Source: Candidatus Dojkabacteria bacterium
Lineage (GTDB): Bacteria; Patescibacteriota; Dojkabacteria; B142; OLB20
Length of the DNA stretch: 64,000 bases
Assembly (NCBI GenBank): GCA_035444565.1
Contig: DAOMOX010000001.1
Coordinates: 59,987-123,986 of the forward strand
Reading direction: 5' to 3'
Position numbers and translations under genes: made by a program. Below the pieces are notes generated by a model, which worked only from the letters and a program-made list of their open reading frames with translations, was not told the DNA's origin and did no database searches. The number at the start of each line of letters is the position of its first letter. The stretch's first letter is position 1. Positions 14,715 to 63,570 of the stretch are shown one piece after another.

Positions 14715-14779
14715 GTTATGAATTAATAATTAAACGTGGGAAGTAATCTTATTGAATAACAGATTGAGGATTTTGTCAA

Positions 14780-15177: not shown

Positions 15178-15182
15178 TACAA

Positions 15183-29232: not shown

Positions 29233-29702
29233 TGTTTGGAGCCAACATATCACAACTGAATAGCAACGTAAACGATGATAATTACCAGGATAAGGTATTC
29301 TCATCAATCAAGCCCTCATTTCTTATTAGAGGTAAAATCTCTATACCACTTACTACTTACGATACTGGAAACTATGCTCAGATTGTTTATACACACAATT
29401 ACGGATATATACCTAACGTGATGGTATTCACTCATACCATGTCAGATAAGTATATCAACATACCTTCAACATGGGGAGAATATTATAATGATCCAGAAGG
29501 GTTAGTAATTGTATCTACTGAAGAGAGTTTCAATTGTTTTGCAGATTCTGTAGCGGTATACATAGAGGCTAGAGTTCATAGATTAGGTTTATATAGAGAG
29601 TTCAATTGGGACACTATGGTGTGGGACGAAACACCAGTAGATGAATACATAATCTATGATTATATGTTTGAGTTAATACTTTCAATGGAGGAGGTCAGTT
29701 AG
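29214..29702 (+). CDS. hypothetical protein
   Basis: 162-aa ORF, the last gene of the plus-strand block. Confidence 0.45.
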   Translation: MEKNSIMFGANISQLNSNVNDDNYQDKVFSSIKPSFLIRGKISIPLTTYDTGNYAQIVYTHNYGYIPNVMVFTHTMSDKYINIPSTWGEYYNDPEGLVIVSTEESFNCFADSVAVYIEARVHRLGLYREFNWDTMVWDETPVDEYIIYDYMFELILSMEEVS

Positions 29703-29719
29703 GTTTAGCAACGAGTCCA

Positions 29720-29741
29720 ATAAGGGTACCCTTATTTTTTA
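29720..29741 (+). terminator. Rho-independent terminator (ATAAGGG-ta-CCCTTAT followed by a T6 run)
   Basis: Perfect 7-bp stem, 2-nt loop and T-tract, 18 nt after the stop of the last plus-strand gene. It is embedded in the 'aggtttagcaacgagtccaa' boundary element. Confidence 0.7.
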
Positions 29742-33800: not shown

Positions 33801-36800
33801 TCTGTAGTCGTAGGAAACTCGACATACTTCTGTAGTAATGTTGCAAACCCTTCTAATTGCTTTAATCTTGGATTATGCCCTGCCTCAGCTCCTGGATAAT
33901 ATTGTAGATAAATCTTTGATAGTTCTTTGTTTAATTCTGGCTTACTTAGATGTACTGTAATTTTGTATTTTGCATCTAAATAATGGGTGAATTCATGAGC
34001 AAACACCGATAAACTATTAATTGAATCGACACGAATGTTTTTTGTAGAAGGATAATACACGCCTAATGCGCCCCTAGGAAGGTATTTCTCACCAACCGTG
34101 AAGTCTTTATCGTATGATTTAAGCAGACTCTGAATCCTCTGGTATATTTTAAACTCCCTAGTCCCTGGCTTGGGCGATTCCCTTAATTCATACTCATCAA
34201 TTGAGGTGGTCCCTTTAGATTTTAGACTAGATATGGTGGCATATCCTTGTCCCCCTCGTACTTTCTCCCCTCTCTGTTTGCCTGTCTCCTTGCCTCTAGT
34301 TCCCTCTGTGAATTCTCTCTCCCTATTCTCAACGACTCCACCAGTTCGGGTGGAAGAGGAGGTTCTTGATTTCTCCTGAATATTTTGTTTAGTAGTTCTT
34401 TCATTGTTGTTATTACTATCTATGCTAATATTTTTTTGCCCTCCCTTTTCATTTTCTCTAGATACTTCCTTCTTCTCTCCTTGCCCTTTTCGATTCCTTC
34501 GTTCATCGCCTTGATTATGTAATTCTCCCTGCCTTCCCTGTCTTCCCAAGAGGGCATCGAGTTGTTTTTTTGTAATTCTTCCTGATTCATATAATTGTTC
34601 TGCATAACTAGCTATCTGATTAATTAAAGTTTTTTTATTGAAGGGGATTTCCTTTATATATTTAACGTCTAGCCTATGAACTCCTTGCATATTCTCCCCA
34701 TTATTTGTAAACATAATGTTTACATTTTCATTTTTCCCGTAATCTTCAAATAATTTTAAGATTACCATCCTTGCTTTTCTATGAGAATTAATGTGATTAC
34801 TTATAGTGACAGTTCTTGGAGTTCCACTTTCATACCTTGCCATAACTCCATCCTTAAATGCCACAAAAGGTTCTCTGTATACATAAAGGATATCGGTCTT
34901 ATAACCTAAGTCTATGGCTTTATCAATATAGCTTTTAGCCCTATTATAATCAGATAGCGTAGAATCATAAGTAATAGTATAATCATTTTTCAATCGTGAT
35001 TTTGAGGTTGTTTTGCCCGATCCTGTACCTCCTGCTAACATAAGTATGCTTTTGTCTTGTTCTTTACTTTTCTCTACTAGTAGTTTATTTAATACTTTAT
35101 CTGCTACTATTCCACTTGCTCTACCATAATCAACTGCATTGGTACGTTTATAACCATCGAATAAAAGTTTTGCACTATCGGAACTAACGTTATTTCCGAA
35201 CCTTTGAATATAGTTATCAACAATCTCGTCGGGGTTTTCCGATAATTGCTCAAAAGACTTTTTTTCGTCTTCGGATCGGAATTTCTCAGGAACTTCTATT
35301 TTCCCAACGTTATCTTCTTTGGGTGTCGACAATAAATTACCATTGGCTTGAACCCTTTTCTCATCTTCGGTTTCGACTGCGATACCCTCTGTTACTTCTC
35401 CTTCTGCCTGGTCCTCTCTTATTTTAGTGGTGATTATAGGGATTTCATTTATCTTTAGTTCTCCATATGCTTTTAAGCGATGATTTCCATCTTCTACCTC
35501 AAAGGTATTCGGTCCTGTAGGTCTAGCAACAATTGGTACTCTTTTACCGCTTTTAATCTCCTCAAGCGCCCTTTGCCCCCTTTCACTATCAAGAGATACA
35601 TTTTCACTTGATTTTATTTGTGTTCTATCTATTGTTCGCCTTTCAACATTATCAGGTCCGCCTATGTTATCAATCGCCTCTTTGAAAGTTCCTTTGCCTA
35701 TAAACTCATCCTCAAAATAACCCGATTCAGTATCATTGTATTCCTGGAATATATCTGATTCAGGGGTAACATCATTTCTCAAACTCTCTGTTACCTCTTG
35801 TACGTCATTCTCGACTGGACCACCCTCTAACTCATTCAATTCATTGATATCATAGTTCCCATCTTCAACACCTTCTGTTATCCCATCCCTAGCTATAAGA
35901 TCATCCATCCCGGCTATTTCATCTGACACACCTTCATCCACACTTATCTCATCCTCTTCAATACCTGCCTGATTTTCGTTCTGTAATAGTTCTATTTCTT
36001 CTCTTATTACTGAAGGTAAACTATCAGGAGGTATATTCTCTTCTTCATCAATGGGGATCTCGATAGGTCCAAATTCGGGTCTTTTTTCTCTCCACTTATA
36101 CCCGGCATTAACAGTTACCTCTGGAATCTTTACCAATCCCCCATACATACCAATCCCTATAATCTCCATCATTAATCTTTGCGCACCTTCCGGTGTAAGA
36201 AGAGAATGATATTGCCTATCTTCAATCTTGGCTTGTACCGGCTCATTGATTTCTTCTTCTAATATCTCCATTAAAAGCCCATCAAATCCACTCTTCTTGA
36301 GATACCTTGAGAATAAATCAATTGATTTGTTATTACTCTTCGAGATTGCCTTACCAATCAACGCCTTCTGCATGAACTTCTCCGGATTCTCTGTAATCAA
36401 TCCCATACGTTTAACAATTCCTTTATACGCTGCACTACCACCCTTTGTTGTTAAATCTCCGACACGTTCTGAAAAATGTTCAGCCCATGAAGATAGAAAT
36501 GCTTTCCTAAAAGCAACGTTAGGATCATCTCCCTTACTTGCTTCCTTCAGTAAAGCCTCTCCATCTTCACTCATCATTATTTCGTATTCGGGTAACGCAT
36601 ACCCGGCTGCCTTCTCTGATAGTGCCGGGAAATTGATTCCTGTTTGAACTGCTGATTCTGCTAACTCGCCTGTCAATTTCTGCATAAATGGTCCTGCGAT
36701 TCTCTTGGGTAGTATCTTTGTAACAGCCGGACCTATTTTAGTGGCACCTAAGGCACCTTTGGCTGCACCCTTTGTAATCAGAAATTCATATCCGTACCTA

Positions 36801-37696
36801 GCCATATCCGGCATCATCTCTCCGACTGCATAAGGAATACCCCTATCTATTCTAGAATCTATCATCTTGGCTGACATTAGATTCAATGCGGCAATTTCAG
36901 TCTTACTTAATACATCACCTCCATGATATTTCTCGGTTATTGCTTTGATATCTACCAATTCCCTTTCACCCTCTTCTAACTTCTCTAGTGCTTCTTTCGT
37001 GAGCTTATCCCTATCACTTTTCAATGTGTTATATCCAAAGGGTAGAAAACGGAGATCAAGGATTGATTCTTTTAATCCATCAAAGAATCCGGATTTAACA
37101 TCAGACCTATTAATAAACTTGTTGTACATTTCCGCCTCTTCACTAATCAACTGAAGATACTCATGATCTTCTTTCCTCTTCTTTCGTTTCTCTGGATCAA
37201 TTGTAGGAATAAAACCAGCCCATCTTTCCTCAAAGGTCATATTCTGGAACTCTTGATTAAGGAAATTCATCCTCTCTAGTACATAAGGACTCTTTGCTTC
37301 ATACACTTCCGGAGCATTATGATCTATCACCTTCTTCTGGTCGTTATACATCTTCTTTGCATACTTGACTCTATCCTTTGCTCCTTTAATGCTTAGAGGA
37401 TCCTTTAGAAGGACCTTCTTTGGATCCTTCTTGATCGCACTCTTTAGTTTGGAGAAAAAGCCCTCTTCAGGCTCCTCTTTTTTAGTTGAAGTTGATATGG
37501 GAGTTGTATCGGGAGCGGTCCATTTCTTAGGAGTTGTTGGCTCTACTGCCTTGTTATAAGTGCCATCTAAAATAGCATCAAATTGTTTCCTATCGAAACT
37601 GACTTGACGCATTTCTTCATCATCATCATTGTCATTTGTTTGAACTCCGGTAGATAATATCCTATCAAAGTCCTCCCTTGAGAATATCTTAGACAT
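30863..37696 (-). CDS. Giant polyvalent virion protein (2277 aa) with ParB-like nuclease, zeta-toxin-like P-loop kinase, low-complexity R/G/E linker, HExxH metallopeptidase and a long C-terminal region with a TM segment
   Basis: ParB nuclease (ParBc) 'KRVPIVARPTGPNTFEVEDGNHRLKA'. P-loop 'ILMLAGGTGSGKTTSKSRL' with a zeta/PNK-like downstream region. Linker 'RQGRQGELHNQGDERRNRKGQGEKK...'. Peptidase 'SVFAHEFTHYLD'. TM 'IMFVGLVLMAAYLASLDYL'. Confidence 0.7.
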   Translation of the reverse strand: MSKIFSREDFDRILSTGVQTNDNDDDEEMRQVSFDRKQFDAILDGTYNKAVEPTTPKKWTAPDTTPISTSTKKEEPEEGFFSKLKSAIKKDPKKVLLKDPLSIKGAKDRVKYAKKMYNDQKKVIDHNAPEVYEAKSPYVLERMNFLNQEFQNMTFEERWAGFIPTIDPEKRKKRKEDHEYLQLISEEAEMYNKFINRSDVKSGFFDGLKESILDLRFLPFGYNTLKSDRDKLTKEALEKLEEGERELVDIKAITEKYHGGDVLSKTEIAALNLMSAKMIDSRIDRGIPYAVGEMMPDMARYGYEFLITKGAAKGALGATKIGPAVTKILPKRIAGPFMQKLTGELAESAVQTGINFPALSEKAAGYALPEYEIMMSEDGEALLKEASKGDDPNVAFRKAFLSSWAEHFSERVGDLTTKGGSAAYKGIVKRMGLITENPEKFMQKALIGKAISKSNNKSIDLFSRYLKKSGFDGLLMEILEEEINEPVQAKIEDRQYHSLLTPEGAQRLMMEIIGIGMYGGLVKIPEVTVNAGYKWREKRPEFGPIEIPIDEEENIPPDSLPSVIREEIELLQNENQAGIEEDEISVDEGVSDEIAGMDDLIARDGITEGVEDGNYDINELNELEGGPVENDVQEVTESLRNDVTPESDIFQEYNDTESGYFEDEFIGKGTFKEAIDNIGGPDNVERRTIDRTQIKSSENVSLDSERGQRALEEIKSGKRVPIVARPTGPNTFEVEDGNHRLKAYGELKINEIPIITTKIREDQAEGEVTEGIAVETEDEKRVQANGNLLSTPKEDNVGKIEVPEKFRSEDEKKSFEQLSENPDEIVDNYIQRFGNNVSSDSAKLLFDGYKRTNAVDYGRASGIVADKVLNKLLVEKSKEQDKSILMLAGGTGSGKTTSKSRLKNDYTITYDSTLSDYNRAKSYIDKAIDLGYKTDILYVYREPFVAFKDGVMARYESGTPRTVTISNHINSHRKARMVILKLFEDYGKNENVNIMFTNNGENMQGVHRLDVKYIKEIPFNKKTLINQIASYAEQLYESGRITKKQLDALLGRQGRQGELHNQGDERRNRKGQGEKKEVSRENEKGGQKNISIDSNNNNERTTKQNIQEKSRTSSSTRTGGVVENREREFTEGTRGKETGKQRGEKVRGGQGYATISSLKSKGTTSIDEYELRESPKPGTREFKIYQRIQSLLKSYDKDFTVGEKYLPRGALGVYYPSTKNIRVDSINSLSVFAHEFTHYLDAKYKITVHLSKPELNKELSKIYLQYYPGAEAGHNPRLKQLEGFATLLQKYVEFPTTTETEYPLLVNEFLKPKGEYYEPTIGKMLEDLNQLVADYQGLESLDKIGTRVSSDDTGIDRKSFFTSQERLRQQLADKVYPLEVIAKKAGIDNKSIDPSLWARAYSAVNGIVGNNISTKRGYWAFTDLESGFQKKYEYNWKTLIDRLEKNNRADSFGYYLVARRQHFLYKELDLLGNRKGQLEVIVKALNKITEPNKLSRFNRDLKSMLEEDYGIEIIPSTIKNGKPEYTAMNLERFKRETNRLLQKLEKEYEEFKSVLDNDGFSRQVVDDAYKQNSEAYKYEEKMFDSLVKADLELLHNPEVQLIDKATFDKLNNTQGYASFKRQFYDELVGETDIPSTSKVKKTKISSLMRRTGSERTIINPIYSSMINHSEIVRKSMRQVVYNRIGGLGSSAAIPNIFQEQELKILYDKSSEKVTYPQEKDPNIIMARLNYKRQPILVNKEVKTIIDDILDYKSIGKFSKLYLAVSRMFTLGTTGAFVPFTITNFFMDQVTASVNSYNKFIPLYSPFSTYIKQKINKNSIESKYYEEYLVMGGERQTFMGWQKMSPSQLFEKIKSEKSLIDKATLIGSKALDILQKPASASEIITRAAEYVAARKAGKSQVVALEEAGRVTAPFHHTGVWGSTSSDITGAVYIRGLPFFNASLQVLDQLARVSKTPGGRKRIMFVGLVLMAAYLASLDYLFRNSSDDQKEQYKGLAPEELANFIYFPNPSGKGLWRFRVPTPITIPATVLNMIVSEAMFDTKYDSDEYIDLVTSWIPDQFNLAEPTKAALAWVPQFFKPTTHVIFNVKEYPEVRPLVNQGLSNRPNAEQYNEGTTPLAKKLGEMMNLSPIKIDYFVTGTFGRASKMLMGQPENLNPLTSFQRDYWLTSDRRITDFYNTRDENDKKYSSVQNHRGEYENITEPEIKEIYRIKAITDDVDDLLDEFREVDIEKNQEEASKLRSKILTNVEGLENPKYYPRDFAEWSKDRTKTRYKNKSKK

Positions 37697-50692: not shown

Positions 50693-51187
50693 ATGAGAGA
50701 GATAAGATTCAGGGCTTGGCAAAGCGAAGATAAACAAATGATTTACTCGCCTTTAATCACATCTAATGATGGTGCCGATAAAGCCTTCACGTCTTTTTGG
50801 GCTTTTATTGAAGATAACACTATATACGCGGGAGATGTTCAGATAATGCAATACATAGGACTAAAAGACAAGAACGGTAAAGAGATTTACGAGGGGGATG
50901 TGATAAATTATTTAGATAATTCTCATGATTATGGTGAATTTGGTTTTGGAATTAGAAAGGGGGTATGTGAATTTTCAAACCATACGGGAAGTTTCTTTTT
51001 TAGGGGTGATGATGGAGATACAAGGGATTATATGAACCTTGTTAATATGCAAGAAAAATGGAGTAAAGAAAGTTATCAAACAGTAAGTTCGCCATTCAGA
51101 GATGGTAAATTAGTAAAAAGTTACACTGAAATTGAAATCATCGGAAACATCTACGAAAACCCTAATTTATTATCACAAGACAAATGA
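50693..51187 (+). CDS. YopX-family phage protein
   Basis: N-terminus 'MREIRFRAWQ..' and 'IGLKDKNGKEIYEGDVI', as in the YopX domain. Confidence 0.65.
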   Translation: MREIRFRAWQSEDKQMIYSPLITSNDGADKAFTSFWAFIEDNTIYAGDVQIMQYIGLKDKNGKEIYEGDVINYLDNSHDYGEFGFGIRKGVCEFSNHTGSFFFRGDDGDTRDYMNLVNMQEKWSKESYQTVSSPFRDGKLVKSYTEIEIIGNIYENPNLLSQDK

Positions 51188-51414
51188 CAGACAAAGAGAT
51201 TGAGGAAAAAAGAGAGGAGTTTATTACAACATTTCCGAGTCTTTACGAGGGTCTTGGAACTGGAAGTTATTTGGAGATTCACGATAAGGTATGGCAATGG
51301 ATAGAGGAACTGATAAGGCATTATCATACACAAGGAAAGATAGAGGGATATAAAGAATGTCTTGAAGAGCAAGACGAACATGGCAAATATAATTTATTAA
51401 AAGATAAAAGATGA
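51184..51414 (+). CDS. small acidic protein, paralog of 53066-53359 (WxWIEELI motif)
   Basis: 'MTDKEIEEKREEF...VWQWIEELIRHY' versus 'MTDKEKAEKKNEY...LLIWEWIEELIKEV'. Confidence 0.45.
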   Translation: MTDKEIEEKREEFITTFPSLYEGLGTGSYLEIHDKVWQWIEELIRHYHTQGKIEGYKECLEEQDEHGKYNLLKDKR

Positions 51415-53065: not shown

Positions 53066-53359
53066 ATGACAGACAAAGAAAAAGCCGAAAAGAAGAATGA
53101 GTATTACGAGAAATTCGTGGGCTATGATGCATATGACGAGTTAACAGATGCAGAACAGGAGAAGCTATTGATATGGGAATGGATAGAGGAACTGATTAAA
53201 GAAGTTGAGAACAAAATAGAATCAGATATCCAAGACATTAGGATAGATTATTATCAAAAGTATTTAGGACACAATGTTTTGAAAGAGTTATCTGTACACG
53301 AGATGGAAAAAGTAATGATATGGAACTGGTTTGAAGAAAAGTTACGGAACTTTTCGTAA
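53066..53359 (+). CDS. small acidic protein with two WxWIEELI-like repeats (paralog of 51184-51414)
   Basis: 'LLIWEWIEELIKEVENK' and 'VMIWNWFEEKLRNF'. Confidence 0.45.
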   Translation: MTDKEKAEKKNEYYEKFVGYDAYDELTDAEQEKLLIWEWIEELIKEVENKIESDIQDIRIDYYQKYLGHNVLKELSVHEMEKVMIWNWFEEKLRNFS

Positions 53360-53437
53360 CCATCTTTATGTTAAAGAGAAAAATGTGAAGTCCTGATTTA
53401 AGCTCATTATTCCAGTTCTAAACACGTCCCATAAGGC

Positions 53438-53515
53438 ACCCCAGTGTTTCTGAGCTTGCGAAGAAATACACTGGGTAAGGTCTGCCGTAGCTTTAGCGTA
53501 GGCATGACCACCCCA
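53438..53515 (+). repeat. 78-bp direct repeat, copy 1 (75/78 identical to 58818-58895); contains a hairpin CCAGTGT-N22-ACACTGG
   Basis: 'accccagtgtttctgagcttgcgaagaaatacactgggtaaggtctgccgtagctttagcgtaggcatgaccacccca'. Confidence 0.85.
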
Positions 53516-53561
53516 TTTCATCAATTAACTTAAATCCAATCAAACTCTCAAAAAAACATAT

Positions 53562-54554
53562 CTAGTTTAAGATAGTTGTTAAATCAGACTCGTCTAGCAT
53601 GATTGCAAGATCTTTTAGTAATTCATGTCCCTCCGGCATATGAACTCCAGGTAAATTAGCAAGGACATGATCAGTAACACCATCACTATATACGTCAGGA
53701 TTTGCATATCTATATTGCATTATTGGATCGAGTGCTAATTGAGATAAAATATTTCCCGGAATCATAGCCATACTCATTTCGGCAAATATTACCCCTCCTC
53801 TCAACGTTTTACCATCATACTTCCCGGCAGTTCCTTTATGTTCTCGTTTGACTCCTTCCGCCAAATCAATACCTGAATCACCATACCGTCTTAAGGGATC
53901 GTTGAATAAAAGTAATTCTGTTTCTCTTCCAACGTAACCAAAAATACGCCTCCTAACATGACCTTCTTTAACAGGATGGCCAAATGCATGCTCATACAAA
54001 CCCCAGTATTGATCAAAGCTCAATTGAAGTTGTTTTCTAAACAGAATATTTAATGTGTTTTGTTCTAAATATTGAGTAATAAGTGAGGAAATATGTTTAA
54101 TTTCTGGCCTTATTAAGATTGCTGAGACACCATTTGCTACCAGTGCATTTACCTGAGGTATTTTTTCTGCAAACAACCGCTCCAAGTTGATACCGCCAAG
54201 ATACCGAAATGTGCCATAGTCTTGACTATTTAATATTGGAAGGACTTCCGGGAAATCGCAATGTGCAGATACAATCATTGCTTTTTCTATGTATCCTTGT
54301 GCTGCATTTGAGTCTTTTGGAGTTAACCCAGTCTCTTGAGTCAAATACAAAAGTTGTTGGGGTAGAATGTGTGCTAATTCTTTCATAGCCTGCCCAGCAA
54401 GAAAAGTGAGATGTTCATTTCTTTGTTGATAGAAAGGAGGCATTTCTTCGGGTTCAGAAGAAAAAGATCTTTCAAAAAAATCTAGATATTGAGTGATCGA
54501 AATTTGGTTAACATTTGGGGCAGTTCTATTTTCACCAGAGAACTTGAGATTCAT
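53562..54554 (-). CDS. hypothetical protein (330 aa), last gene of a 4-gene operon
   Basis: Long ORF separated by 6 nt from the CYTH gene. No motif recognised; 'RRYGDSGIDLAEG' is faintly nucleotidyltransferase-like. Confidence 0.5.
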   Translation of the reverse strand: MNLKFSGENRTAPNVNQISITQYLDFFERSFSSEPEEMPPFYQQRNEHLTFLAGQAMKELAHILPQQLLYLTQETGLTPKDSNAAQGYIEKAMIVSAHCDFPEVLPILNSQDYGTFRYLGGINLERLFAEKIPQVNALVANGVSAILIRPEIKHISSLITQYLEQNTLNILFRKQLQLSFDQYWGLYEHAFGHPVKEGHVRRRIFGYVGRETELLLFNDPLRRYGDSGIDLAEGVKREHKGTAGKYDGKTLRGGVIFAEMSMAMIPGNILSQLALDPIMQYRYANPDVYSDGVTDHVLANLPGVHMPEGHELLKDLAIMLDESDLTTILN

Positions 54555-54560
54555 GTTTCA

Positions 54561-55208
54561 TTATTTAAACAAAAGCTCGGAATAAAAATTAATATTATAT
54601 AGATCAAAAAAACTCTGTCCCGAAAGAATTGATACTTGATTTCCCCCTAGACCAAGTTTTTTAATCCAATTATGAATGATTTCAGAATTACTTGCTTCAA
54701 TCTCCAAATAAGTAGGGATTCCTGGCCACGTATCAATATCAAAATGAGCAGAAAGTGATTCGTGAACAATTTGGTATGAAATTCTTTTTTTCTGTTGATG
54801 TGCAGTAACAATTAAACCAGCATCGGTAATAGTTTGGCCAATTTTTCCCCATTCATTCTTTGTTAAATTTGTATTTAGCTCGACTTCTTTTTTTACGTCT
54901 ATATTGTGAGACTTTGAAAATTTAAGTGTAAACTCATAATGCTCACCTTGTTTTCGTGCTCGTAAATGATAATTTTGATCACGCAATGATTTACCATGCC
55001 AAGTTAATTCTTCAGCAATTTTAATAGTATCTACTAGTTTTGCCGGTAGCTTTGTATATTCAATTTCAAGACTCTTACTTATATCGAAAGTCCAAATTTC
55101 AGTAAGAGCATCTAAAATTTTTTCAGCATGATTCTTTTCAAGTTCATTTATTAAATGTTCCTTGTTTACTGCTAATACTTTTAATTCTAATTCTTCTACT
55201 TTTTTCAT
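54561..55208 (-). CDS. CYTH-domain protein (class IV adenylyl cyclase / triphosphate tunnel metalloenzyme family)
   Basis: N-terminal 'ELELKVLAV' (EIE[RK]KFL-like) and C-terminal 'YLEIEA'. Length 215 aa fits a CYTH domain. Confidence 0.55.
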   Translation of the reverse strand: MKKVEELELKVLAVNKEHLINELEKNHAEKILDALTEIWTFDISKSLEIEYTKLPAKLVDTIKIAEELTWHGKSLRDQNYHLRARKQGEHYEFTLKFSKSHNIDVKKEVELNTNLTKNEWGKIGQTITDAGLIVTAHQQKKRISYQIVHESLSAHFDIDTWPGIPTYLEIEASNSEIIHNWIKKLGLGGNQVSILSGQSFFDLYNINFYSELLFK

Positions 55209-55209
55209 T

Positions 55210-56109
55210 TTAAGTTAATAATATATCAATGGATTCATCTTCATTAAGCAAATACTCCGTTGCTCTTTCGGACAGCCTAGCTATTTTATCGGGGCTACTG
55301 TTTATCTTGTATGGGACATTTGTTCTATAAGTCCGATACAAGATCGTGGCTGCAATATATTGGTTTATTAAATTCTTATTAAATGTTAACCCAAAGCTAG
55401 TTTCAAAACCAGAAAAGAATGCATCGAAAATCTCTCTACGAGCATCAGAGTTTAGAAGTAAATGACCTAATGCATAACCAATATCGAATTCTTTTATACC
55501 TACGCAAACTGTTTCTAAATCACAAATCTTAATTTCTCCTTCCGTATCTATCAATATATTTTTTGGGGATAGGCTCCCCATTATTAACCCTTTATTACCT
55601 TTATTTAAAAGTTGTAGATGATTAAATCCGGGGATTCTTGAAAATCTAAAATTTAATATTTGTTCAAAAAATGATTTATCGTCTTCCCTAAACTCATCAA
55701 CAACTGGCAATTTAGATTGCACACAAGCAATTAGCTCACCAAACTTAAACGCGAAGCCAGGTGTGATTCCAGACGAGAAAATCATATTTTGTAGTGTATC
55801 TCCACCTGATGGTAATAAATCCGATAGAACAATTATCCCATTTTCAATATCTTCACCTAATAAGAGAGGGAAATTTTTAGGGGCAATTCCTGAAAATATT
55901 TTTATCCCTTCTGCTTCATATTCAATCTCATGAGGTTGTGTAGTTACATTTTCCAATTGTGAGGCACTTTTACCTCTGATTTTTACTATATACGTTCCAT
56001 CTTCACCAAAGATTCTATAGACCTGATGTACTAAGCCACCCGACAATTCAGCAACATTCACTGGTTTATAATTTAGATATTTTTCAAGTACAAGATTTGA
56101 TTCCGTCAA
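55210..56109 (-). CDS. APH/ChoK-family small-molecule kinase (phosphotransferase enzyme family)
   Basis: Nucleotide-binding 'LSGGLVHQVYRI'. Catalytic region 'PKNILIDTEGEIKICDLE'. 299 aa. Confidence 0.6.
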   Translation of the reverse strand: MTESNLVLEKYLNYKPVNVAELSGGLVHQVYRIFGEDGTYIVKIRGKSASQLENVTTQPHEIEYEAEGIKIFSGIAPKNFPLLLGEDIENGIIVLSDLLPSGGDTLQNMIFSSGITPGFAFKFGELIACVQSKLPVVDEFREDDKSFFEQILNFRFSRIPGFNHLQLLNKGNKGLIMGSLSPKNILIDTEGEIKICDLETVCVGIKEFDIGYALGHLLLNSDARREIFDAFFSGFETSFGLTFNKNLINQYIAATILYRTYRTNVPYKINSSPDKIARLSERATEYLLNEDESIDILLT

Positions 56110-57044
56110 AATACTCTAGGTAAAAAGAATTCGGGAGGTTCAAAAAGCTGAGTTTCAGAAAAATCATCTCTTTGTATACTGCTAACAATTTGTTCATACG
56201 ACCAATCTGGACAAACATTATGTGGTATTTGTACAGTATCTCTACCTAAGTGAGCTAATTGCCTCACCCCAACAATATAATATGGTGGTCTATAAGTATC
56301 TTCACTTAAACCACCATCTATCCCCATATTAATCATAAGATCATCAGTCTCAATTCTTGATCTCTGAATCACACCTTCAATTTCTTCTAATAAAAATTCT
56401 CTAGTATTTCTTAAGGGTAATTTATCTGTGAGATATAAAATATGTTTAAGTTTTGCTTTCAGTACATATTGGTAGTCATCCCTTATTACTCGCCATGCTT
56501 CAAGTTTGCTCGAAAGATGGTCATCAATCATTGATCTTGTGACAGTACCTGTATTTAGTTTGCCTTCGAGGATATTTACATACCAATTTGATTCACTCAA
56601 TCGCGGTACAATCATTCCAATTACTGCTCTTAATCCGTTAATGTTTTCTACATCAAATTGCAATTTTAATAGTTCTGAAAATTGTGGAAATAGATAATCA
56701 AAGCCGGCAAACAATGATTGCCTATCCCAATAAGGAATATTTTCGGTATTTGACCCACCCCATTCTGCGATTCCTGTGACAACATGAACTTTTGTATGCC
56801 TATCCATCCTTCTCAAATGGTTTGGCTTGGACAAATCAATTCCAGCTTGAAGTTGAGTATTAGGCTTAACTTTTTCCTTCTCTCTAGCATACATGTCGTT
56901 TACGGCTTCAAAAAACATTACTGGATGTGATACCACTTCTTGAAGGGGATAATTTAATACTGCAGTATGGGACGCTGAACTGTTTGGAAATAGTTCTTGG
57001 TCAAAGATGTGATTTTTAACGTCTGTGGAGAATTCACTACCCAT
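56106..57044 (-). CDS. hypothetical protein (312 aa), first gene of the 4-gene operon
   Basis: ORF overlapping the kinase start by 4 nt. Confidence 0.5.
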   Translation of the reverse strand: MGSEFSTDVKNHIFDQELFPNSSASHTAVLNYPLQEVVSHPVMFFEAVNDMYAREKEKVKPNTQLQAGIDLSKPNHLRRMDRHTKVHVVTGIAEWGGSNTENIPYWDRQSLFAGFDYLFPQFSELLKLQFDVENINGLRAVIGMIVPRLSESNWYVNILEGKLNTGTVTRSMIDDHLSSKLEAWRVIRDDYQYVLKAKLKHILYLTDKLPLRNTREFLLEEIEGVIQRSRIETDDLMINMGIDGGLSEDTYRPPYYIVGVRQLAHLGRDTVQIPHNVCPDWSYEQIVSSIQRDDFSETQLFEPPEFFLPRVF

Positions 57045-57183
57045 ACCTTAATATATTATATTAATAAGTAATGTGGGCAGTTAAAATAAATGTGTTATCC
57101 ATTATACCATTTAAGTAAAGTGTGATTAATAGGAGGTCGTCTTGTAGTACATCCTATACGAGTCCTACAAGTGACCCCCCATC

Positions 57184-57918
57184 TTAGGAATTATTTATTG
57201 AGAATTTATCCAATTCTTTTTTCACTTGTACTAATAATTGTTTATCAACTTTAAAATCCTTTGAGTAAATTTCGTTATGTAATGAGCTCAAATCAAGTAT
57301 GATATCTTTAGTATGTATATCATCAGGATTGAAATCATTGACCATAACAACTAATGGTTTAACGAAAAGTTTGTCATGCGTATCTTCGGGTAATTTATCC
57401 AGCAAAAACTTTCTTAATCTCATTGCATTGGATAATGCCTGTGTATTTGGAGATCTTAGTAATTGTTTACGCTTACCACTTATACCAAATTTCCGTTTCT
57501 CAGTTCGATACCATTTATCGCCATATACTTCAATCCTACCTGTATAATTCTTAGTTTCTATTACAAAAATCCCTTTCCTAGATAAGACAATATGGTCAAT
57601 ATCCATCTTACTATTAGGTAGCATTATATTTTGGTAACTATAACTATGCTCTACTTCTAACAGTTTATTAGCAACAACTATTTCTCCTTGGTCACCTCTT
57701 TCGTAACTATCATAGCTATCCCAGCTCGAAAAAAACATATCAATTATCTTATCCATTAATATGAATAGTCCACAAAAGCCTAACAAATAGAATAACAAAG
57801 TATTTTGCACAATGAATTTTTTATCAAGTAGAATGAGGAATATCAACACTGTAATAAATCCGCTAAGTAGCATTATTATAAGTTTTCTGGATTTTTGTTT
57901 TTTAGAATATTTACTCAT
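57184..57918 (-). CDS. Membrane-anchored NERD (nuclease-related domain) protein
   Basis: Two N-terminal TM helices, then 'QGEIVVANKL...MDIDHIVLSRKGIFVIETKNYTGRI', the NERD signature. Confidence 0.7.
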   Translation of the reverse strand: MSKYSKKQKSRKLIIMLLSGFITVLIFLILLDKKFIVQNTLLFYLLGFCGLFILMDKIIDMFFSSWDSYDSYERGDQGEIVVANKLLEVEHSYSYQNIMLPNSKMDIDHIVLSRKGIFVIETKNYTGRIEVYGDKWYRTEKRKFGISGKRKQLLRSPNTQALSNAMRLRKFLLDKLPEDTHDKLFVKPLVVMVNDFNPDDIHTKDIILDLSSLHNEIYSKDFKVDKQLLVQVKKELDKFSINNS

Positions 57919-58056
57919 ATATGAATCAGTATAAACACTTTGTTCATGAACATGAAGACCTTGCTAGATACCATCATAAAATGAACAGTCAGTTAATGTA
58001 AAATTGACTAATTAAAGCAATAATATTAAAATCCTAATATATGAATCCTTCTCCAA

Positions 58057-58365
58057 ATGACTGATAAAGTAGTTAAACTCTCAATAGATAATAGACTAAT
58101 AATATTGGTTGTTTTATTAGTTGCAGGAATCTTTTCTCTATTTGTAATGTACGAAAAGATTAATGACCAACAAAAGCAGTCCAATTTCGAAGAATGCCAA
58201 GCCTCAGCATACAAGAGGTTCGGGGAACGACTTCAGTCACTTTGTGGAAAAAAAGATCTCTCAGAATGTCAAGCCTCAGAAATATCTACAGACTTAGCAG
58301 ATCACTACACTAAAATGTATGATGATGAGAATGATGATTGTTTGAAAATTATGCTTTATGATTAA
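58057..58365 (+). CDS. small secreted or membrane-anchored Cys-containing protein (paralog of 58372-58674)
   Basis: N-terminal TM or signal, then 'FEECQASAY...LCGKKDLSECQASE'. Confidence 0.45.
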   Translation: MTDKVVKLSIDNRLIILVVLLVAGIFSLFVMYEKINDQQKQSNFEECQASAYKRFGERLQSLCGKKDLSECQASEISTDLADHYTKMYDDENDDCLKIMLYD

Positions 58366-58371
58366 TTTGCT

Positions 58372-58674
58372 ATGAAAAGGTCCTATGCTTTAATCGCACT
58401 CATATTTACAAGTTTAATTATAATCATGCTTGGTATCCTAGTTGGATACCCAATTTATAAGGACCAATCAAGAAAAGAGCTTGTTAGTAATTGTAACGAG
58501 TTTCGAGATTTCTCACTTAGAGAGAAGCTTAGCGAAGTGTGCAAAGACGAGGGTTTTAGAAACACTGACGAATGTAAACTTCCAGATGATACGTTTAAAG
58601 CTATAAATAATTACGCGGACATACAAGAGGAAGCATGCATCAAACAAGACTGGCCTTCCAAATATGATGAATAG
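58372..58674 (+). CDS. small secreted or membrane-anchored Cys-containing protein (paralog of 58057-58365)
   Basis: N-terminal TM, then 'SNCNEFRDFSLREKLSEVCKDEGFRNTDECKLPDD'. Confidence 0.45.
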   Translation: MKRSYALIALIFTSLIIIMLGILVGYPIYKDQSRKELVSNCNEFRDFSLREKLSEVCKDEGFRNTDECKLPDDTFKAINNYADIQEEACIKQDWPSKYDE

Positions 58675-58794
58675 TATTAGTTTATAGTATATAGTTTCCA
58701 ATACCCATGTAATGATATTGAGAACTACTAAATTGTCGACTCTGAAAGCAGTGAATTTATATTATTAATGTTGAAGTTAAAATCAATTTTAAGG

Positions 58795-58895
58795 TTTAGC
58801 AACGAGTCCAACAAGTGACCCCAGTGTTTCTGAGCTTGCGAAGAAATACACTGGGTAAGGTCTGCCGTAGCTTCAGCGAAGGCATGGCCACCCCA
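58795..58895 (+). repeat. Boundary element: 'ggtttagcaacgagtccaacaag' (22/23 identical to 29701-29723) fused to copy 2 of the 78-bp repeat (58818-58895); 'cgagtccaacaagtgacccca' resembles the tRNA-His 3' end
   Basis: Direct comparison with 29701-29723, 53438-53515, 57155-57176 and the tRNA 3' sequence 'cgagtcccatttgccacccca' (16/21). Confidence 0.75.
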
Positions 58896-58984
58896 AGTGT
58901 GACTCTTAGCGGAAACAAACACACTATCAAAAGGTTTAACCCATTCGTAGCTTAGCTTTCCATCCTTTATTTCAAATTCGACTA

Positions 58985-59557
58985 TTATTTTCGACGAGAA
59001 TGTTCATCATACTTTTTATTCATTTTCTCTGCTGCCTTTTTCCCCAATAGTCCTTCAGATTGAACTCTGCTTGCATATTTGTCCGCCGAGCAACCTTTGA
59101 CTCCTCTTCCTGTAGATGCGTCATTAGCAGCTTTGGCTTCTTTATTGGTCCATATTATCCGTTGTCTTTGTTGACCAGACCATTCTTCAGGATTAGTTCC
59201 GATATATCCTTCACTAACCCTATTATCCCAAGAATAAGCTAAAAGAGGCAAAACAGCAGTTACGCCCAGACCCCATAACATACTACCTGCTAAGGTAGCT
59301 AAAGTTCGGCGAAGGACCTGTGGATTGTCTGGAAACATTTCATTAAAGCTTTCTCCTAATCCGTGAAATGCATGCTTTGATCCACCCTCCTCCCAATCCG
59401 CTACAAAAGCTTCTGAACCGGGGAGAGTTCCAGGCAAAGGGGATGGTTGTGCTTTATATCTTTGGACAAGGGATCCTACTAATCGCGATCCGAATGGCCT
59501 ATTTTTAGAAATATTGTCAGGTTGAACAGCTTCCATTTCATCTATTCGTATATACAT
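58985..59557 (-). CDS. hypothetical membrane protein (190 aa); locally GC-rich relative to neighbours
   Basis: Long ORF with TM 'LATLAGSMLWGLGVTAVLPLLAYSW'. By eye it is clearly more GC-rich than the flanking sequence. Confidence 0.4.
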   Translation of the reverse strand: MYIRIDEMEAVQPDNISKNRPFGSRLVGSLVQRYKAQPSPLPGTLPGSEAFVADWEEGGSKHAFHGLGESFNEMFPDNPQVLRRTLATLAGSMLWGLGVTAVLPLLAYSWDNRVSEGYIGTNPEEWSGQQRQRIIWTNKEAKAANDASTGRGVKGCSADKYASRVQSEGLLGKKAAEKMNKKYDEHSRRK

Positions 59558-60525: not shown

Positions 60526-63500
60526 GTGAGACTCATTACAAACTATGGAGGGGAATACTCCCCTCCCTTTTTTGCACCAAGTAATTCAGTGCAATTAGAC
60601 TTAAAATATGCCGACCTACACTCCTATATAACTGGAGTAGTCAATGTTGTTGAAAATAATAGCAGTAACCAAAGGGAAAAATTAGGTCTAGGTTCGATTT
60701 GGGGGAATAAATCTTCTCTTCGAGATTTTGATTTATCTAATAATCAAGTAGGATTACGAGGGAGTTATAAATTAGGTAAGAACTTAGACTCTGATGAATC
60801 TGATACTGGATTGTTACCATACTATCAGAAAGATGGAAGGTTAGACGCTTTTCCTGGTCAAAAACCCACCCATAAAGGAGCGAGATATTATATTTCTGTA
60901 GACTCAAGTGTTCCCACACAGTGGAAGTTAGAAGTCATAAAAGAAGATGTTAATGATGCAATAGCGCAACTTTCAGAAGGATATGAAGATGAAAACTATC
61001 TACAATATCTCGGAGTGATTGACCATTTACGTAACCATATAAGCACTTTATATCATTCATACACATATAAGGATAGGTATGAATTAACTGAAAATGCAGA
61101 GTACGTAGAAAGGAGAGAGAGGATTTTCAATTCTATGGTTAATATTACCCAGGAGTACTATTTAACTTTGCTTGGCCATAAGTCAGGAGTTGAAATTAAT
61201 TCAGCAGAAATACTTTCTATTGTTGATGATACTACAAACGATTTATTGGGACGAGATGATGTGGTTTTCAAGATGCCAGAAATTGAAAACTCTCTGAAAG
61301 TACTAGCATTTGCAGACTTGGTTACAGACAAGCATCCTGAAATTGATGTGGTTGTTGGTGCTCCATCGGGAGGAAGCGAAACTGCAATAGTTACAGATCT
61401 CCTATATAAAATTAAAAATCCCAATAGAGAAAGACAATTGGAGTTACTTCCAATTTCTACACACTCTGCATCAGTTAAGAGGGATGACGAAGAAACCACC
61501 AAAGACGACATTGAAGATTACATAAAATCAAATGGGATTGAATTCCAAGGAAAGAAAGTATTATTTGTCGACGACAACAGCAATACTGGACGTACTTTGG
61601 CACTTGCAGAAAATATAATTATTAATTCAGGTGCAGAAAATGTTATTTGTAGAGTAGTAGAGGCAGATCCGATAAGAATTCAATTAAAGTCAAGTCCAGA
61701 CAACGTTCAACTTGTGCCTAATCCGATGGTGAACGAATGTTCAGTTGGGTTTGTACCTATAACGAGAGGTGCGGGTCTACTATCTCCAGATCGTCAAATG
61801 CTTAAAATAGAAAGACAGGGTGTCCTACGCAGAAATTATAATAGAACTACAAATGCGGAAGATTCTCCAATGGAGCGAGATGAGGTGGATTCGAAAACTC
61901 AGGAAAGTAGAACGGAAGCAGAAATAAAAGTATGTGGAGTTCACAACATCTATGATGCCCAAGCATGTTTGCTCTCTGGGGTTAGAAATTTCGGAATACA
62001 TTTAACTTACACCCCAGAAGAGTACAAGAGAAAAGCACTAGGAATCGATGATCCGAGAGTAGCTATAAAGATGAATAAAGTACACGATTTTTACAGTGAC
62101 CGGGATTTACCCTTACCATGGCTCGAATTAAATCCTATAAGAGACATGATAGATTATCTTGACGAAAGTGAAATAGAAACTAACCTATTCCTACTGATGA
62201 GACCTAAAAGTTCAGACGAAGCTATAAGAATATTAAGAAGAGTTATTCCAAGTGGAAGTCAGCAAAAAGTAACCCTCCAGTTACAAGGTGATTATGATGC
62301 CGAATTGGTCAATTCCATCAGGGAAGAATTAAAAGCTGGATTTGAAAATGAAATTTCAATCGTACAGATGGTTGCCCTGGATGAAGATGATTTAGATCGA
62401 AAAATTTTTGAATTGAATTCTGATACAAATGTGGATGCGGTTCTAGTTGATTCAAAGAAAAAAGGTGGAACTGGGGAGCAAGGGGATATCGAACAACTAG
62501 TAAGAGTTCTAGGAGGAATCTCAAAGAGAAAATATTTGGCTGGAGGGCTTTCTAGTTCAAATATAAATCAAACGTTAGAAATACTGAGGAATAACGGAAT
62601 CCAAGTTGAGGGATTGGACTTAGAGTCGTCTGTTGAATTTGACGAAACCATGATAAAAGTTAAATCGGATGGAAGTATAGTAAAAAGACGTAAAGATCCT
62701 GAGAAAATATCACGATTTGTTGATGAAGTTGAATTAATTGAATATATGGAAATCACAATTCAAGACACCCAATTCAAAACGGTTTTAAATCAAGCTTGGG
62801 AATTTGCTAAAAACGAAACTGGTTATTTCAATCTTGATGCAGCAGCAGAAGGATTTTGGATCTATGCTTCCCAGGAGGGTTTACTAACCGACATTGCATT
62901 ATCGAATAAGACTGCATTCATCAATCAATTTAGAATCGCCGCTTCTACATACCCTGCTATACCAGGAATCGTGCGCGAGAAGTTAAGCAGAGATGAAGAA
63001 AGTGATGCTTTTCAGGAGAAAAAGCCTCAAGCATGGCTGAATGCTGGTGTTGGAAACTTTCTTAGTCAAATCGCTAATGCTGGTGATGTTTCATCAATAA
63101 TTTGGACTGCTGGTGATTCTGTAGTTGAGGACTACCCAAGGATAGGTAATTACGCAATGACCGAAGAACAACGACTTCGTTACGAATTATCTGGTTTGGA
63201 GAGACTTTCGAATCAAATATTTGCCGAACATACAGGCATAGAATTTATAGCACATCCTGACAAGCTGGGCGTTGTCGGAAAAAGAATCGAGGAGTGGAGC
63301 CAACACGGAACGATATATGTAATGGATAACGACTTGGAGAATCTCAGAAGGTTTAATGAAATTTGTAACAAACATGGCGTAACGAATGTACAGATAATAC
63401 ACATTGATGGTCCTTTAGATGGATATTCTGATAGAATCACAAATTTGGTACCTGGAGATCTAGTTATCATGGATATGGACGACGTTTTACTAAATGGCGA

Positions 63501-63570
63501 GTTCAGGAAATTCCACCAGCCCAGAAATATATTGAAACACTTAACCGATTTGGGCTACTACCATGAATGA
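60526..63570 (+). CDS. Multidomain protein fusing a type I phosphoribosyltransferase domain and a TrpF-like phosphoribosylanthranilate-isomerase domain, with unknown N- and C-terminal regions
   Basis: PRTase 'GKKVLFVDDNSNTGRTLALAE', preceded by 'VVVGAPSGGSETAIVT'. TrpF-like 'EIKVCGVHNIYDAQACLLSGVRNFGIHLTY' and 'VLVDSKKKGGTGEQGDIEQL...KYLAGGLSSSNINQTLE'. Confidence 0.6.
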   Translation: MRLITNYGGEYSPPFFAPSNSVQLDLKYADLHSYITGVVNVVENNSSNQREKLGLGSIWGNKSSLRDFDLSNNQVGLRGSYKLGKNLDSDESDTGLLPYYQKDGRLDAFPGQKPTHKGARYYISVDSSVPTQWKLEVIKEDVNDAIAQLSEGYEDENYLQYLGVIDHLRNHISTLYHSYTYKDRYELTENAEYVERRERIFNSMVNITQEYYLTLLGHKSGVEINSAEILSIVDDTTNDLLGRDDVVFKMPEIENSLKVLAFADLVTDKHPEIDVVVGAPSGGSETAIVTDLLYKIKNPNRERQLELLPISTHSASVKRDDEETTKDDIEDYIKSNGIEFQGKKVLFVDDNSNTGRTLALAENIIINSGAENVICRVVEADPIRIQLKSSPDNVQLVPNPMVNECSVGFVPITRGAGLLSPDRQMLKIERQGVLRRNYNRTTNAEDSPMERDEVDSKTQESRTEAEIKVCGVHNIYDAQACLLSGVRNFGIHLTYTPEEYKRKALGIDDPRVAIKMNKVHDFYSDRDLPLPWLELNPIRDMIDYLDESEIETNLFLLMRPKSSDEAIRILRRVIPSGSQQKVTLQLQGDYDAELVNSIREELKAGFENEISIVQMVALDEDDLDRKIFELNSDTNVDAVLVDSKKKGGTGEQGDIEQLVRVLGGISKRKYLAGGLSSSNINQTLEILRNNGIQVEGLDLESSVEFDETMIKVKSDGSIVKRRKDPEKISRFVDEVELIEYMEITIQDTQFKTVLNQAWEFAKNETGYFNLDAAAEGFWIYASQEGLLTDIALSNKTAFINQFRIAASTYPAIPGIVREKLSRDEESDAFQEKKPQAWLNAGVGNFLSQIANAGDVSSIIWTAGDSVVEDYPRIGNYAMTEEQRLRYELSGLERLSNQIFAEHTGIEFIAHPDKLGVVGKRIEEWSQHGTIYVMDNDLENLRRFNEICNKHGVTNVQIIHIDGPLDGYSDRITNLVPGDLVIMDMDDVLLNGEFRKFHQPRNILKHLTDLGYYHE

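Follow-up and report, generated by a model that had tools for sequence, protein, structure and literature searches.

A rare accessory operon of divergent enzyme-superfamily members and one orphan family among integration scars at tRNA-His in Candidatus Dojkabacteria

The stretch of DNA analysed here (the window; 64,000 nucleotides) sits in a metagenomic contig of 186,934 bp (ENA ERZ773355 NODE_12). Its close homologues and the related loci carry the name Candidatus Dojkabacteria (formerly WS6), a lineage of the candidate phyla radiation (CPR). The nearest genome is the metagenome-assembled genome (MAG) DTUPAT2, with a nucleotide identity of 97–98% to the window; this locus is designated L017 and the other related loci are likewise referred to by number. 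The window contains a tRNA-His gene, a 40.2 kb prophage and, beyond the far end of the prophage, four tightly packed minus-strand genes (A–D), a gene for a NERD-domain protein, two small cysteine-rich genes and two copies of a direct repeat (Table 1). A sequence-only reading had taken the repeats as the borders of a five-gene NERD/CYTH/APH-kinase cassette at the prophage end, a candidate defence or signalling system. The analysis presented here indicates that A–D are best described as a rare accessory operon, composed of divergent members of known enzyme superfamilies together with one orphan family, that lies in an array of integration scars.

Table 1. Features of the locus. Positions are those of the window except in the last row, which gives positions in L017.
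Feature	Position	Strand	Description
Gene A	56106-57044	-	312 aa, orphan protein
Gene B	55210-56109	-	299 aa, probable APH/protein-kinase-like fold without catalytic Asp
Gene C	54561-55208	-	215 aa, CYTH/triphosphate tunnel metalloenzyme (TTM), probable hydrolase type
Gene D	53562-54554	-	330 aa, helical N-terminal domain and predicted NDK-fold C-terminal domain
Promoter-like site upstream of A	57055-57084	-	TTAACT-18-TATAAT; consensus scan only
tRNA-His	13189-13265	+	ARAGORN and Rfam; last 7 nt CACCCCA (13259-13265) are the prophage attL core
Large serine recombinase (prophage integrase)	13200-14714	-	Pfam Resolvase, Recombinase, Zn_ribbon_recom
Prophage, 40.2 kb	13266-53443		Gene content; both ends joined in L028; L011 versus L010
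Repeat copy A	53421-53515	+	Phage attR arm 53421-53436, core CACCCCA 53437-53443, 72-nt tRNA-His trailer 53444-53515
Repeat copy B	58801-58895	+	attR-type arm 58801-58816, core-like GACCCCA 58817-58823, second 72-nt trailer 58824-58895
Partial att-type arm	57158-57181	+	ACGAGTCCTACAAGTGAC followed by CCCCCA; boundary between NERD module and operon block
Serine-integrase 3'-end remnant	58896-58975	-	Joined through ...HTWGG to the pseudo-tRNA end of the trailer in copy B; attL-type scar
NERD-domain protein	57184-57918	-	PF08378, 70.4 bits, E 2.3e-19; 244 aa
Small Cys-rich paralogues	58057-58365, 58372-58674	+	N-terminal hydrophobic segment in each; four Cys in register (E 0.003)
L017 island	9119-16247		HigB-like toxin, helix-turn-helix plus Peptidase_M78 (ImmA/IrrE-like), 435-aa unknown, DUF4352, secreted SNase with Excalibur, 548-aa serine recombinase

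The prophage encodes a serine integrase, an SU10-type portal, a capsid protein, Rep_O, RecT, YopX and tail-like proteins, and its ends can be placed by comparison with other loci. Two JGI contigs of one lineage with identical flanks represent the site without the phage (L010) and with it (L011). The empty site in L010 runs from gene D through approximately 270 nt to ...GAATGGGGTG/GCAAATGGGACTCGAACC..., which is tRNA-His read antisense (slashes mark points of fusion); in the sense of the tRNA, an intact gene is followed directly by its trailer and then by gene D. The occupied site in L011 reads ...GAATGGGGTG/CCTTATGGGACGTGTTTAGAACTGG..., with the junction GGGGTG/CCTTATGGGACGTG, and its phage end is matched at 94–95% by the phage arm at 53421-53443 of the window. 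The circular attP junction is present in the IMG/VR contig L028 as ...AAACACGTCCCATAAGG-CACCCCA-TGTAGGACGCTGGTTC..., corresponding to window 53420-53443 fused to position 13259 onward (in a shorter rendering, the joined prophage ends are ...ACACGTCCCATAAGG-CACCCCA-TGTAGGACGCTGG...). The 7 bp core CACCCCA, which comprises the last bases of the tRNA including CCA, is common to attB, attP, attL and attR, the attR core lying within repeat copy A. These comparisons show that the prophage is inserted in the 3' end of tRNA-His at this core. Since the attP junction together with the empty and occupied sites puts the phage end at 53443, the cassette lies outside the phage. Searches for homologues of A and D among GenBank phages and IMG/VR found none, a DNA search of the cassette against GenBank phages gave no match and A–D gave none against PHROGs. 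The position at the prophage end had thus been recognized correctly from the sequence, and the proposal that the cassette is a moron or other prophage cargo is contradicted by its location beyond the attR core and by the phage searches.

In the integrated state the integrase open reading frame (ORF) crosses attL into tRNA-His antisense, an overlap of 66 nt that exists because the integrase gene spans attP. The window integrase has the C-terminus ...RPTWGGKWDSNPRPPLPQRGALTN; its prophage ORF ends ...RPTWGG/KWDSNPRPPLPQRGALTN, with the tail read from the tRNA antisense. In the free phage the protein would instead end ...TWG/ALWDVFRTGIMSLNQDFTFFSLT, the ORF then spanning attP. A called GIY-YIG gene (approximately 12948-13211, plus strand) overlaps the 5' part of tRNA-His.

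The direct repeat, first noticed as a nearly identical pair of 78 bp, is real and longer, extending over 95 nt with 91% identity (53421-53515 and 58801-58895); it includes a 77-nt core with three mismatches and a 37-nt core that is identical in both copies. No such match arose in any of 100 shuffles, so it is not expected by chance. The two repeats are copies of a tRNA-His trailer, each fused to an att arm. In copy A the trailer opens with a hairpin whose start lies within the CCA end; a degenerate tRNA 3' half (pseudo-tRNA) ending CCACCCCA comes next. Over the 118 nt compared (53443-53560), the sequence is 100% identical to that following gene D in L009 and L014–L016, loci without the phage. 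The 72 nt at 53444-53515 are the trailer native to tRNA-His; in L010 the corresponding trailer has another hairpin sequence. The arm of copy B reads GGGGT/CACTTGTTGGACTCGTTGCTAAACC..., and its minus-strand frame from the core encodes WGHLLDSLLNLKIDF..., which is conserved at the protein level with the arms in L009 and L010, behaving as would be expected for the 'tail' of another integrase family. At copy B the pseudo-tRNA end of the trailer itself served as an integration target. The integrase remnant fused to it translates to ...EFEIKDGKLSYEWVKPFDSVFVSAKSHTWGG (also rendered ...IKDGKLSYEWVKPFDSVFVSAKSHTWGG), has the same terminal register as the last residues of the window integrase, aligns in that register to residues 462-486 (E 5e-4 in a search of three sequences) and is 89.5% identical to L010 4349-4434. 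A boundary element had also been proposed at 57155, and a 21-nt partial copy of the arm is indeed present at 57158-57178, matching 58802-58822 at 20 of 21 positions.

Several other interpretations of the repeats were tried and discarded. They are not RNA genes: Rfam gave nothing at the gathering score or at E <= 1, ARAGORN found tRNA-His alone and the folding z-scores were unremarkable. They are not the att pair of the resident prophage, as both copies are found to the same side of the phage, whose attL is in fact at 13259-13265. The ORFs 53366-53524 and 58728-58922 are not paralogous genes, being read-throughs of the trailer into integrase 'tail' frames. Template and variable repeats of a diversity-generating retroelement were rejected, the mismatches not being adenine-specific. 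It is also conceivable that the 72-nt repeat is a functional structured element, such as a tRNA-His trailer acting as RNA or a DNA hairpin that binds protein, rather than a mere scar. This would be compatible with the att interpretation, and the hairpin at the CCA end is retained with differing stems (CCCAGTGT...ACACTGGG in the window; CCCATTCGT...ACGAATGGG and CCCATTTCT...AGAAATGGG in L010), the element always ending CCACCCCA in mimicry of the tRNA-His 3' end. A structural function is nevertheless very unlikely given the absence of any Rfam family even at E <= 1, folding energies that are not exceptional (z of -1.1 to -2.2), the small number of independent variants and the use of the pseudo-tRNA end as an integration target in copy B.

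An exact 20-mer, TTGGACTCGTTGCTAAACCT, occurs twice in the window, at 58792-58811 (minus strand) in the arm of copy B and at 29701-29720 (minus strand) inside the prophage, where it lies between convergent genes directly after an GGGTACCC hairpin. Related copies are found in convergent intergenic regions of other Dojkabacteria loci (L009 near 9169, L010 near 74 and L014 near 2713). The copy-B occurrence fits the integrase-tail arm and the one in the phage has no explanation. The repeats also left their mark on public assemblies: the Logan contig L003 (5384 bp) begins inside copy B and ends inside copy A, the assembler having broken at the repeats, and L002 (5400 bp, from another public assembly) starts ahead of gene A and extends past copy A into phage genes.

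L017 lacks the 40-kb phage and has instead an island of 7.2 kb, bordered by copy A and by a third copy (C) that abuts tRNA-His; without the prophage, copy A of the window would abut tRNA-His in the same manner. The tRNA fragment beside the L017 island differs from the window tRNA in its first 6 nt, suggesting a further junction beyond. The site is an integration hotspot for serine-integrase elements at the tRNA-His 3' end of a Candidatus Dojkabacteria (CPR) chromosome, and the description of the region as accessory DNA bracketed by repeats in a variable hotspot near the prophage att end stands. As in a tRNA-associated island, repeats derived from the att sites of the target tRNA flank the segment (copies A and B, around 53516-58800). 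No recombinase gene was found between the two copies; outside copy B, a remnant of about 27 codons is all that is present. We infer that the 5.4 kb between the copies is laid out, in the order arm, cargo, trailer, core, like either an island lacking an integrase or two tandem modules split at 57158-57181. Two observations weigh against this model: it is a reconstruction with no integrase inside the segment, and the trailer in L009 and L014 ends ...ACACT/ATTCAGC with no tRNA nearby. Beyond the integrase remnant, a 190-aa ORF (58985-59557) has no match in Pfam, PADLOC, NCBIfam or PHROGs and is missing in L010, where segments 4261-4311 and 4349-4434 are 38 nt apart compared with about 600 nt in the window; this ORF may be an insertion or, with the remnant, the leftover of a decayed element.

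The arrangement resembles other tRNA-linked islands and tandem prophage arrays in the use of a tRNA 3' end, the regeneration of the tRNA at attL, the repeats flanking each module, the stacking of elements with strain-specific cargo at one site (the 40-kb phage in the window, the 7.2-kb island in L017) and the presence of integrase remnants. Tyrosine integrases are the usual enzymes for tRNA targets. The present locus differs in that it involves large serine recombinases, its four att sites share no more than 7 bp of identity, its long repeat is formed by a tRNA-mimicking trailer of 72 nt that was itself used as a secondary target, and the operon module has no integrase. Tandem integration at a tRNA ordinarily produces such a repeat architecture; the repeats are att-site and tRNA-trailer sequences and not the borders of a defence cassette.

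Genes A–D form a tight minus-strand operon, exactly as originally mapped from the ORFs: A and B overlap by 4 nt (the stop codon of A lying over the start of B), B and C are separated by 1 nt and C and D by 6 nt. The block 53443-57143 is 95.8% identical to L009, in another genomic context, with homology stopping at 57143, and the promoter-like site upstream of A falls within this conserved block (window 57053-57142, 91%). The complete order A-B-C-D occurs after the NERD gene in the window and L017, in the different context of L009, in L008 (A 75% identical, with a KAP NTPase ahead), in L007 (A 51% identical) and in L013, where A is split into ORFs of 123 and 219 aa. In L014–L016 (GCA_020429395.1) the equivalent of window 55527-57190 is missing, a deletion that takes away A with two thirds of B and leaves NERD fused to a B remnant of 112 aa ahead of C-D; L010–L012 have an 86-aa NERD remnant followed by C-D. 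Loci L022 and L023 have adjacent A and B genes with a divergent C upstream (A 32–35% identical), L021 (a contig of 1.9 kb) has A-B only (A 36% identical) and L024–L027 (P0029) have A alone (27% identical), flanked by genes for a PMT glycosyltransferase and an EamA transporter.

What adjoins the operon varies from locus to locus: glutamine synthetase, NUDIX, APH and NIF3 genes in L009; KAP NTPase and serine recombinase in L008; a TrmB regulator and an ABC transporter in L007; TsaD/Sua5 and SerRS in L013; and HisRS, ATP-grasp, HAD and histidine kinase in L022 and L023. In L008 the stretch 7557-9990, upstream of A and on its strand, encodes a KAP-family P-loop NTPase of 752 aa together with an ORF of 63 aa whose end lies 10 nt ahead of A; a tubulin/FtsZ-like gene and the serine recombinase are found nearby. 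The ratio of nonsynonymous to synonymous substitution rates (dN/dS) is 0.04–0.36 for all four genes, which indicates purifying selection, including on C and D where A and B have been lost. The operon is rare: gene D was found by a pattern scan in three of 185,579 GTDB species representatives (two Dojkabacteria-labelled MAGs and L017), and word-index searches among 5.8 billion proteins returned five to six homologues for A and for D. The conserved unit is A-B-C-D, present in at least six lineages in differing, non-phage contexts. Neighbourhood conservation, proposed as a check on the cassette, thus holds for A-B-C-D across lineages and fails for the NERD and Cys-rich genes.

The NERD domain call was confirmed by a strong Pfam match. 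Two N-terminal hydrophobic segments of the protein, read by eye from the translation, were taken as membrane helices. The gene is missing beside the operon in L007, L008, L009 and L013. Window and L014 are 72% identical in NERD and 95% in D, and the synonymous divergence (dS) between the window and L017 is 0.33 for NERD and approximately zero for the operon. From this difference in divergence, which changes across the 57158 arm, NERD is a separate module with its boundary at that arm, and the proposed five-gene unit is not upheld. The two small Cys-rich genes are paralogues as first suggested, with N-terminal hydrophobic segments and four aligned cysteines; other genes occupy their place in L017. 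The NERD and Cys-rich genes are exchangeable neighbours and not conserved members of the operon. The window protein shares the NERD domain (PF08378) with the defence proteins MkoA, PglW and MAD6 and differs from them in being a stand-alone protein of 244 aa with two predicted membrane helices, in lacking helicase, kinase or methylase partners and in not being conserved with the operon. Its PADLOC and NCBIfam matches cover just the NERD regions of these three proteins.

Searches for known defence families with profile hidden Markov models (HMMs), the check that had been recommended, gave no PADLOC-DB 2.0 or NCBIfam match for A, C or D, and for B only noise over the catalytic loop (E 0.01-0.07). 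Literature searches found no paper describing CYTH with NDK, APH or NERD as a system. The impression that no described system combines these proteins therefore agrees with the negative results from PADLOC, NCBIfam, PHROGs and the literature.

Of the two proteins left without a prediction by the sequence-only reading, D gave a confident structural model (predicted local distance difference test, pLDDT, 82.5; predicted template-modelling score, pTM, 0.85) and A an unreliable one. The D model comprises a helical N-terminal domain (approximately residues 20–140) and a C-terminal alpha/beta domain. All of the top 50 Foldseek matches are nucleoside diphosphate kinases (NDKs), and the C-terminal domain is predicted to have the NDK fold. 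Invariant residues of the family that are candidates for the active site occur in NDK order (R149-P-E, Y183/Y187, R237, T250-L-R252-G-G, N300, H305 and E311). Similarity to NDK/NME proteins involves the predicted fold of the C-terminal 185 residues and the order of these candidate residues, with RPE for KPD followed by Y, R, T-x-R-G-G, N and H. Differences are the lack of significant sequence similarity, an insert of about 45 residues at the Kpn-loop region, the 140-residue helical N-terminal domain and the confinement of the family to a few Dojkabacteria. A match of D to isocitrate dehydrogenase (E 0.03) was not reproduced with a family profile and was discarded. Profile searches of C and D against PDB sequences gave nothing significant.

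Protein C of the window has no Pfam match at E <= 0.1, and the assignment to CYTH made from the sequence alone is borne out only through its orthologues: one of 73% identity passes the gathering score of the CYTH family (PF01928; 30.5 versus 23.2 bits), as do those in L010 and L022. Membership of the CYTH/TTM superfamily is supported by these profile scores and by the ExExK motif and tunnel residues. The invariant residues are E6xE8xK10, H81-L-R83-A-R85, E92/T94/K96 (ExTxK), E108/E110, K140-K141-R142 (KKR), D157/D159 and E169-I-E171. Phosphatase-type CYTH proteins are characterized by ExExK, both arginines of xRxR and ExE in the last strand; class IV adenylyl cyclases carry HFxxxxExExK, replace the first Arg of xRxR by a small residue and show ExA where the phosphatases have ExE; and the thiamine triphosphatase subclass has W/YxRxR (Vogt et al., 2021; PMC8233210). 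Protein C starts MKKVEELELK without HF and keeps R83/R85 and E169-I-E171, which is the phosphatase (hydrolase) signature rather than that of a class IV cyclase; by these rules the suggested nucleotide cyclase activity is disfavoured. It shares ExExK, both xRxR arginines and ExE with the hydrolase-class enzymes NeuTTM, YgiF, SaTTM and thiamine triphosphatase (PMC8233210). The differences from these are the invariant His at the stacking position, the failure of Pfam to detect the window protein and the encoding of C beside a predicted NDK-fold protein. His81 is neither the W/Y of thiamine triphosphatases nor the small residue of inorganic triphosphatases.

Protein B stands in a similar relation to its proposed family. 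The window protein scores below threshold for APH (PF01636; 16.2 bits against a gathering score of 23.2), the L022 orthologue scores above it (27.3 bits), and BLASTP matches B to a Pfam-positive APH paralogue (E 5e-15). The best NCBIfam match is a very weak one to methylthioribose (MTR) kinase. In common with APH/choline-kinase-like kinases, B retains the glycine-rich loop (G24-G25), the beta3 Lys (K43), the alphaC Glu (E65), the catalytic-loop Asn (N184) and the metal-binding Asp of DxE (D197), all invariant. It differs at the catalytic Asp of the Brenner motif HxDxxxxN: seven of seven orthologues read G[SG]LS[PF]KNI where the paralogue has GDLSPKNI, and every orthologue, including those of only 28% identity, has Gly or Ser at this position. 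A descriptive parallel is offered by pseudokinases such as SelO, which retain ATP binding but not the catalytic Asp.

These features of B and C also bear on the proposal of thiamine salvage, according to which the operon would combine an APH-family thiamine kinase, a kinase converting thiamine diphosphate to the triphosphate and a CYTH thiamine triphosphatase. In its favour, ThiK, a thiamine kinase of bacteria, is a member of the APH family, and the CYTH enzymes include the thiamine triphosphatases. C carries RxR and ExE of the hydrolase type, and the position that stacks on the thiazole is occupied by the invariant aromatic His81 rather than by the small residue of inorganic triphosphatases. 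The motif in all orthologues is HxRxR and not W/YxRxR, however, B lacks the catalytic Asp and matches no NCBIfam thiamine kinase model, and no thiamine transporter, TPK or ThiL gene lies near the operon in the loci examined. A role in thiamine phosphate metabolism, which finds no positive support here, is therefore highly improbable.

Protein A is an orphan. Five homologues were found by word index among 5.8 billion proteins, and an exhaustive profile search of 1.84 billion representatives gave 29 clusters; Pfam and the PDB gave no relative for 26 members. The model is largely helical and of low confidence (pLDDT 52.6), and a fold search with it returned non-specific helical bundles alone, as expected at this pLDDT. 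The invariant residues (H87, S98, D107, K198, R215, R252, Q262, S289 and R292) are polar or charged. An assignment as a phospholipase D (PLD)/HKD enzyme from H83xK85...GSxT was rejected, since K85 is not conserved in the wider family and Pfam and the PDB are silent.

Our preferred interpretation, held with about as much doubt as confidence, is that the operon serves accessory phosphate or nucleotide metabolism, with phosphotransfer involving triphosphates, rather than being a demonstrated immune system. The operon would handle a triphosphate-bearing small molecule. D, with its predicted NDK fold and invariant His305, would transfer a phosphate from a nucleoside triphosphate (NTP) to a diphosphate acceptor via phospho-histidine, and the product, an organic or inorganic triphosphate, would be hydrolysed by C, which has the complete hydrolase motif set and none of the cyclase motifs; jointly, C and D could set the level of this compound. 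B, in which the ATP- and Mg-binding residues are kept and the base is missing, could either act as a kinase on an acceptor that is already anionic (for example, phosphate) or serve A as a nucleotide-binding regulatory partner. A and B would constitute a second sub-module, because their stop and start codons overlap and they are always found together and lost together. C and D could act without A and B, because two lineages keep C and D alone under purifying selection.

A number of observations weigh against this interpretation. A, without a usable model, leaves a quarter of the system blank, and B may be inactive in the absence of its catalytic Asp. D has no Pfam, NCBIfam or PDB sequence match to NDK, an hhalign comparison of D with E. 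coli Ndk gave a probability of 2.75%, and His305 is assigned as the putative catalytic His from motif order and predicted secondary structure, not from superposition. The position in a mobile-element hotspot and the patchy distribution would fit a conflict system too, as would the decay in strains (L014–L016 without A and most of B, L010–L012 with C and D only) and the NERD or KAP NTPase neighbours.

The same enzymes could alternatively perform housekeeping-type nucleotide salvage in a reduced CPR bacterium, with D replacing canonical Ndk and B acting as a nucleoside or sugar kinase. The predicted NDK fold of D, the resemblance of B to the APH/MTR-kinase family, the purifying selection on all four genes and the NUDIX, APH and His_Phos_1 genes that adjoin the operon in L008, L009 and L014 are in keeping with such a role. 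We nevertheless regard it as quite unlikely, since the operon is far too rare (see the homologue counts and GTDB species above), close relatives have lost A and B while retaining the flanking sequence, the catalytic base is missing from B and a near-identical operon is found at different genomic positions.

An undescribed anti-phage or abortive-infection system, in which B, C and D make or destroy a signal or deplete a nucleotide pool and the membrane NERD protein or A is the effector, would account for the integration hotspot beside a prophage and island scars, for the narrow and patchy distribution (three GTDB species representatives in the pattern scan) and for the decayed or partly deleted state in some strains. 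It would also draw on the same-strand upstream neighbours, either NERD (in the window and L014, and as a remnant in L010), a domain common to MkoA, PglW and MAD6, or the KAP P-loop NTPase by a serine recombinase in L008. What argues against it is that A–D have no PADLOC or NCBIfam defence match, that NERD has a separate history and is not conserved with the operon, that the conserved core contains no recognizable effector, that the motifs of C point to a hydrolase and not a signal-making cyclase, and that distant A-B-C modules sit among genes for HisRS, ATP-grasp, HAD, TsaD/Sua5 and SerRS. Such a housekeeping context (L013, L022 and L023) is what the sequence-only reading had named as evidence against its own proposal, and with no positive evidence for a defence role we consider it rather unlikely. 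A broader version is also unlikely: mobile elements would have disseminated A-B-C-D as a hitherto undescribed pathway for the synthesis and breakdown of an unusual triphosphorylated small molecule, which might be a signal or else a nucleotide analogue that is toxic. This pathway would act in conflicts with phages or with the host cells of these epibiotic CPR bacteria. Its parts would be an NDK-fold phosphotransferase, a hydrolase-type CYTH protein, an APH-fold protein without the Asp and with a non-canonical activity, and the enzyme family A, which has no known relatives.

Some further features of the window were recorded. The prophage encodes a protein of 2277 aa (30863-37696) with weak matches to Zeta_toxin and to the large polyvalent protein domain LPD38. 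Two small prophage genes, 51184-51414 and 53066-53359, are paralogues that have the N-terminus MTDKE.EEK and the motif W.WIEELI in common and are visible as direct repeats D2 and D7 with a spacing of 1882 nt. Outside the repeat array, a 1014-aa protein (60526-63570) is an unusual fusion of a phosphoribosyltransferase (residues 271–390) and a PRA-isomerase-like TIM-barrel segment (residues 585–705) with long unannotated regions; on the source contig it is followed by 2-hydroxyacid dehydrogenase and NUDIX genes.

For this locus, repeats that bracket a cassette by a prophage are integration scars and not the borders of a defence system. The site provides a cleanly resolved case of a large serine recombinase targeting a tRNA gene in the CPR, with attB, attP, attL and attR all recovered from public data, and att sites resolved in this way help to define phage genome ends and to assign hosts in this phylum. 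Uncultivated CPR bacteria have minimal metabolism and few recognized defence systems, and conserved accessory operons are rare handles on their biology. The operon described here pairs a predicted NDK-fold protein that is invisible at the sequence level with a putative CYTH hydrolase, a kinase fold without the catalytic Asp and an orphan family, all of which are testable as enzymes. Should their chemistry be solved, a novel triphosphate metabolite or a previously unseen use of the NDK fold might come to light.

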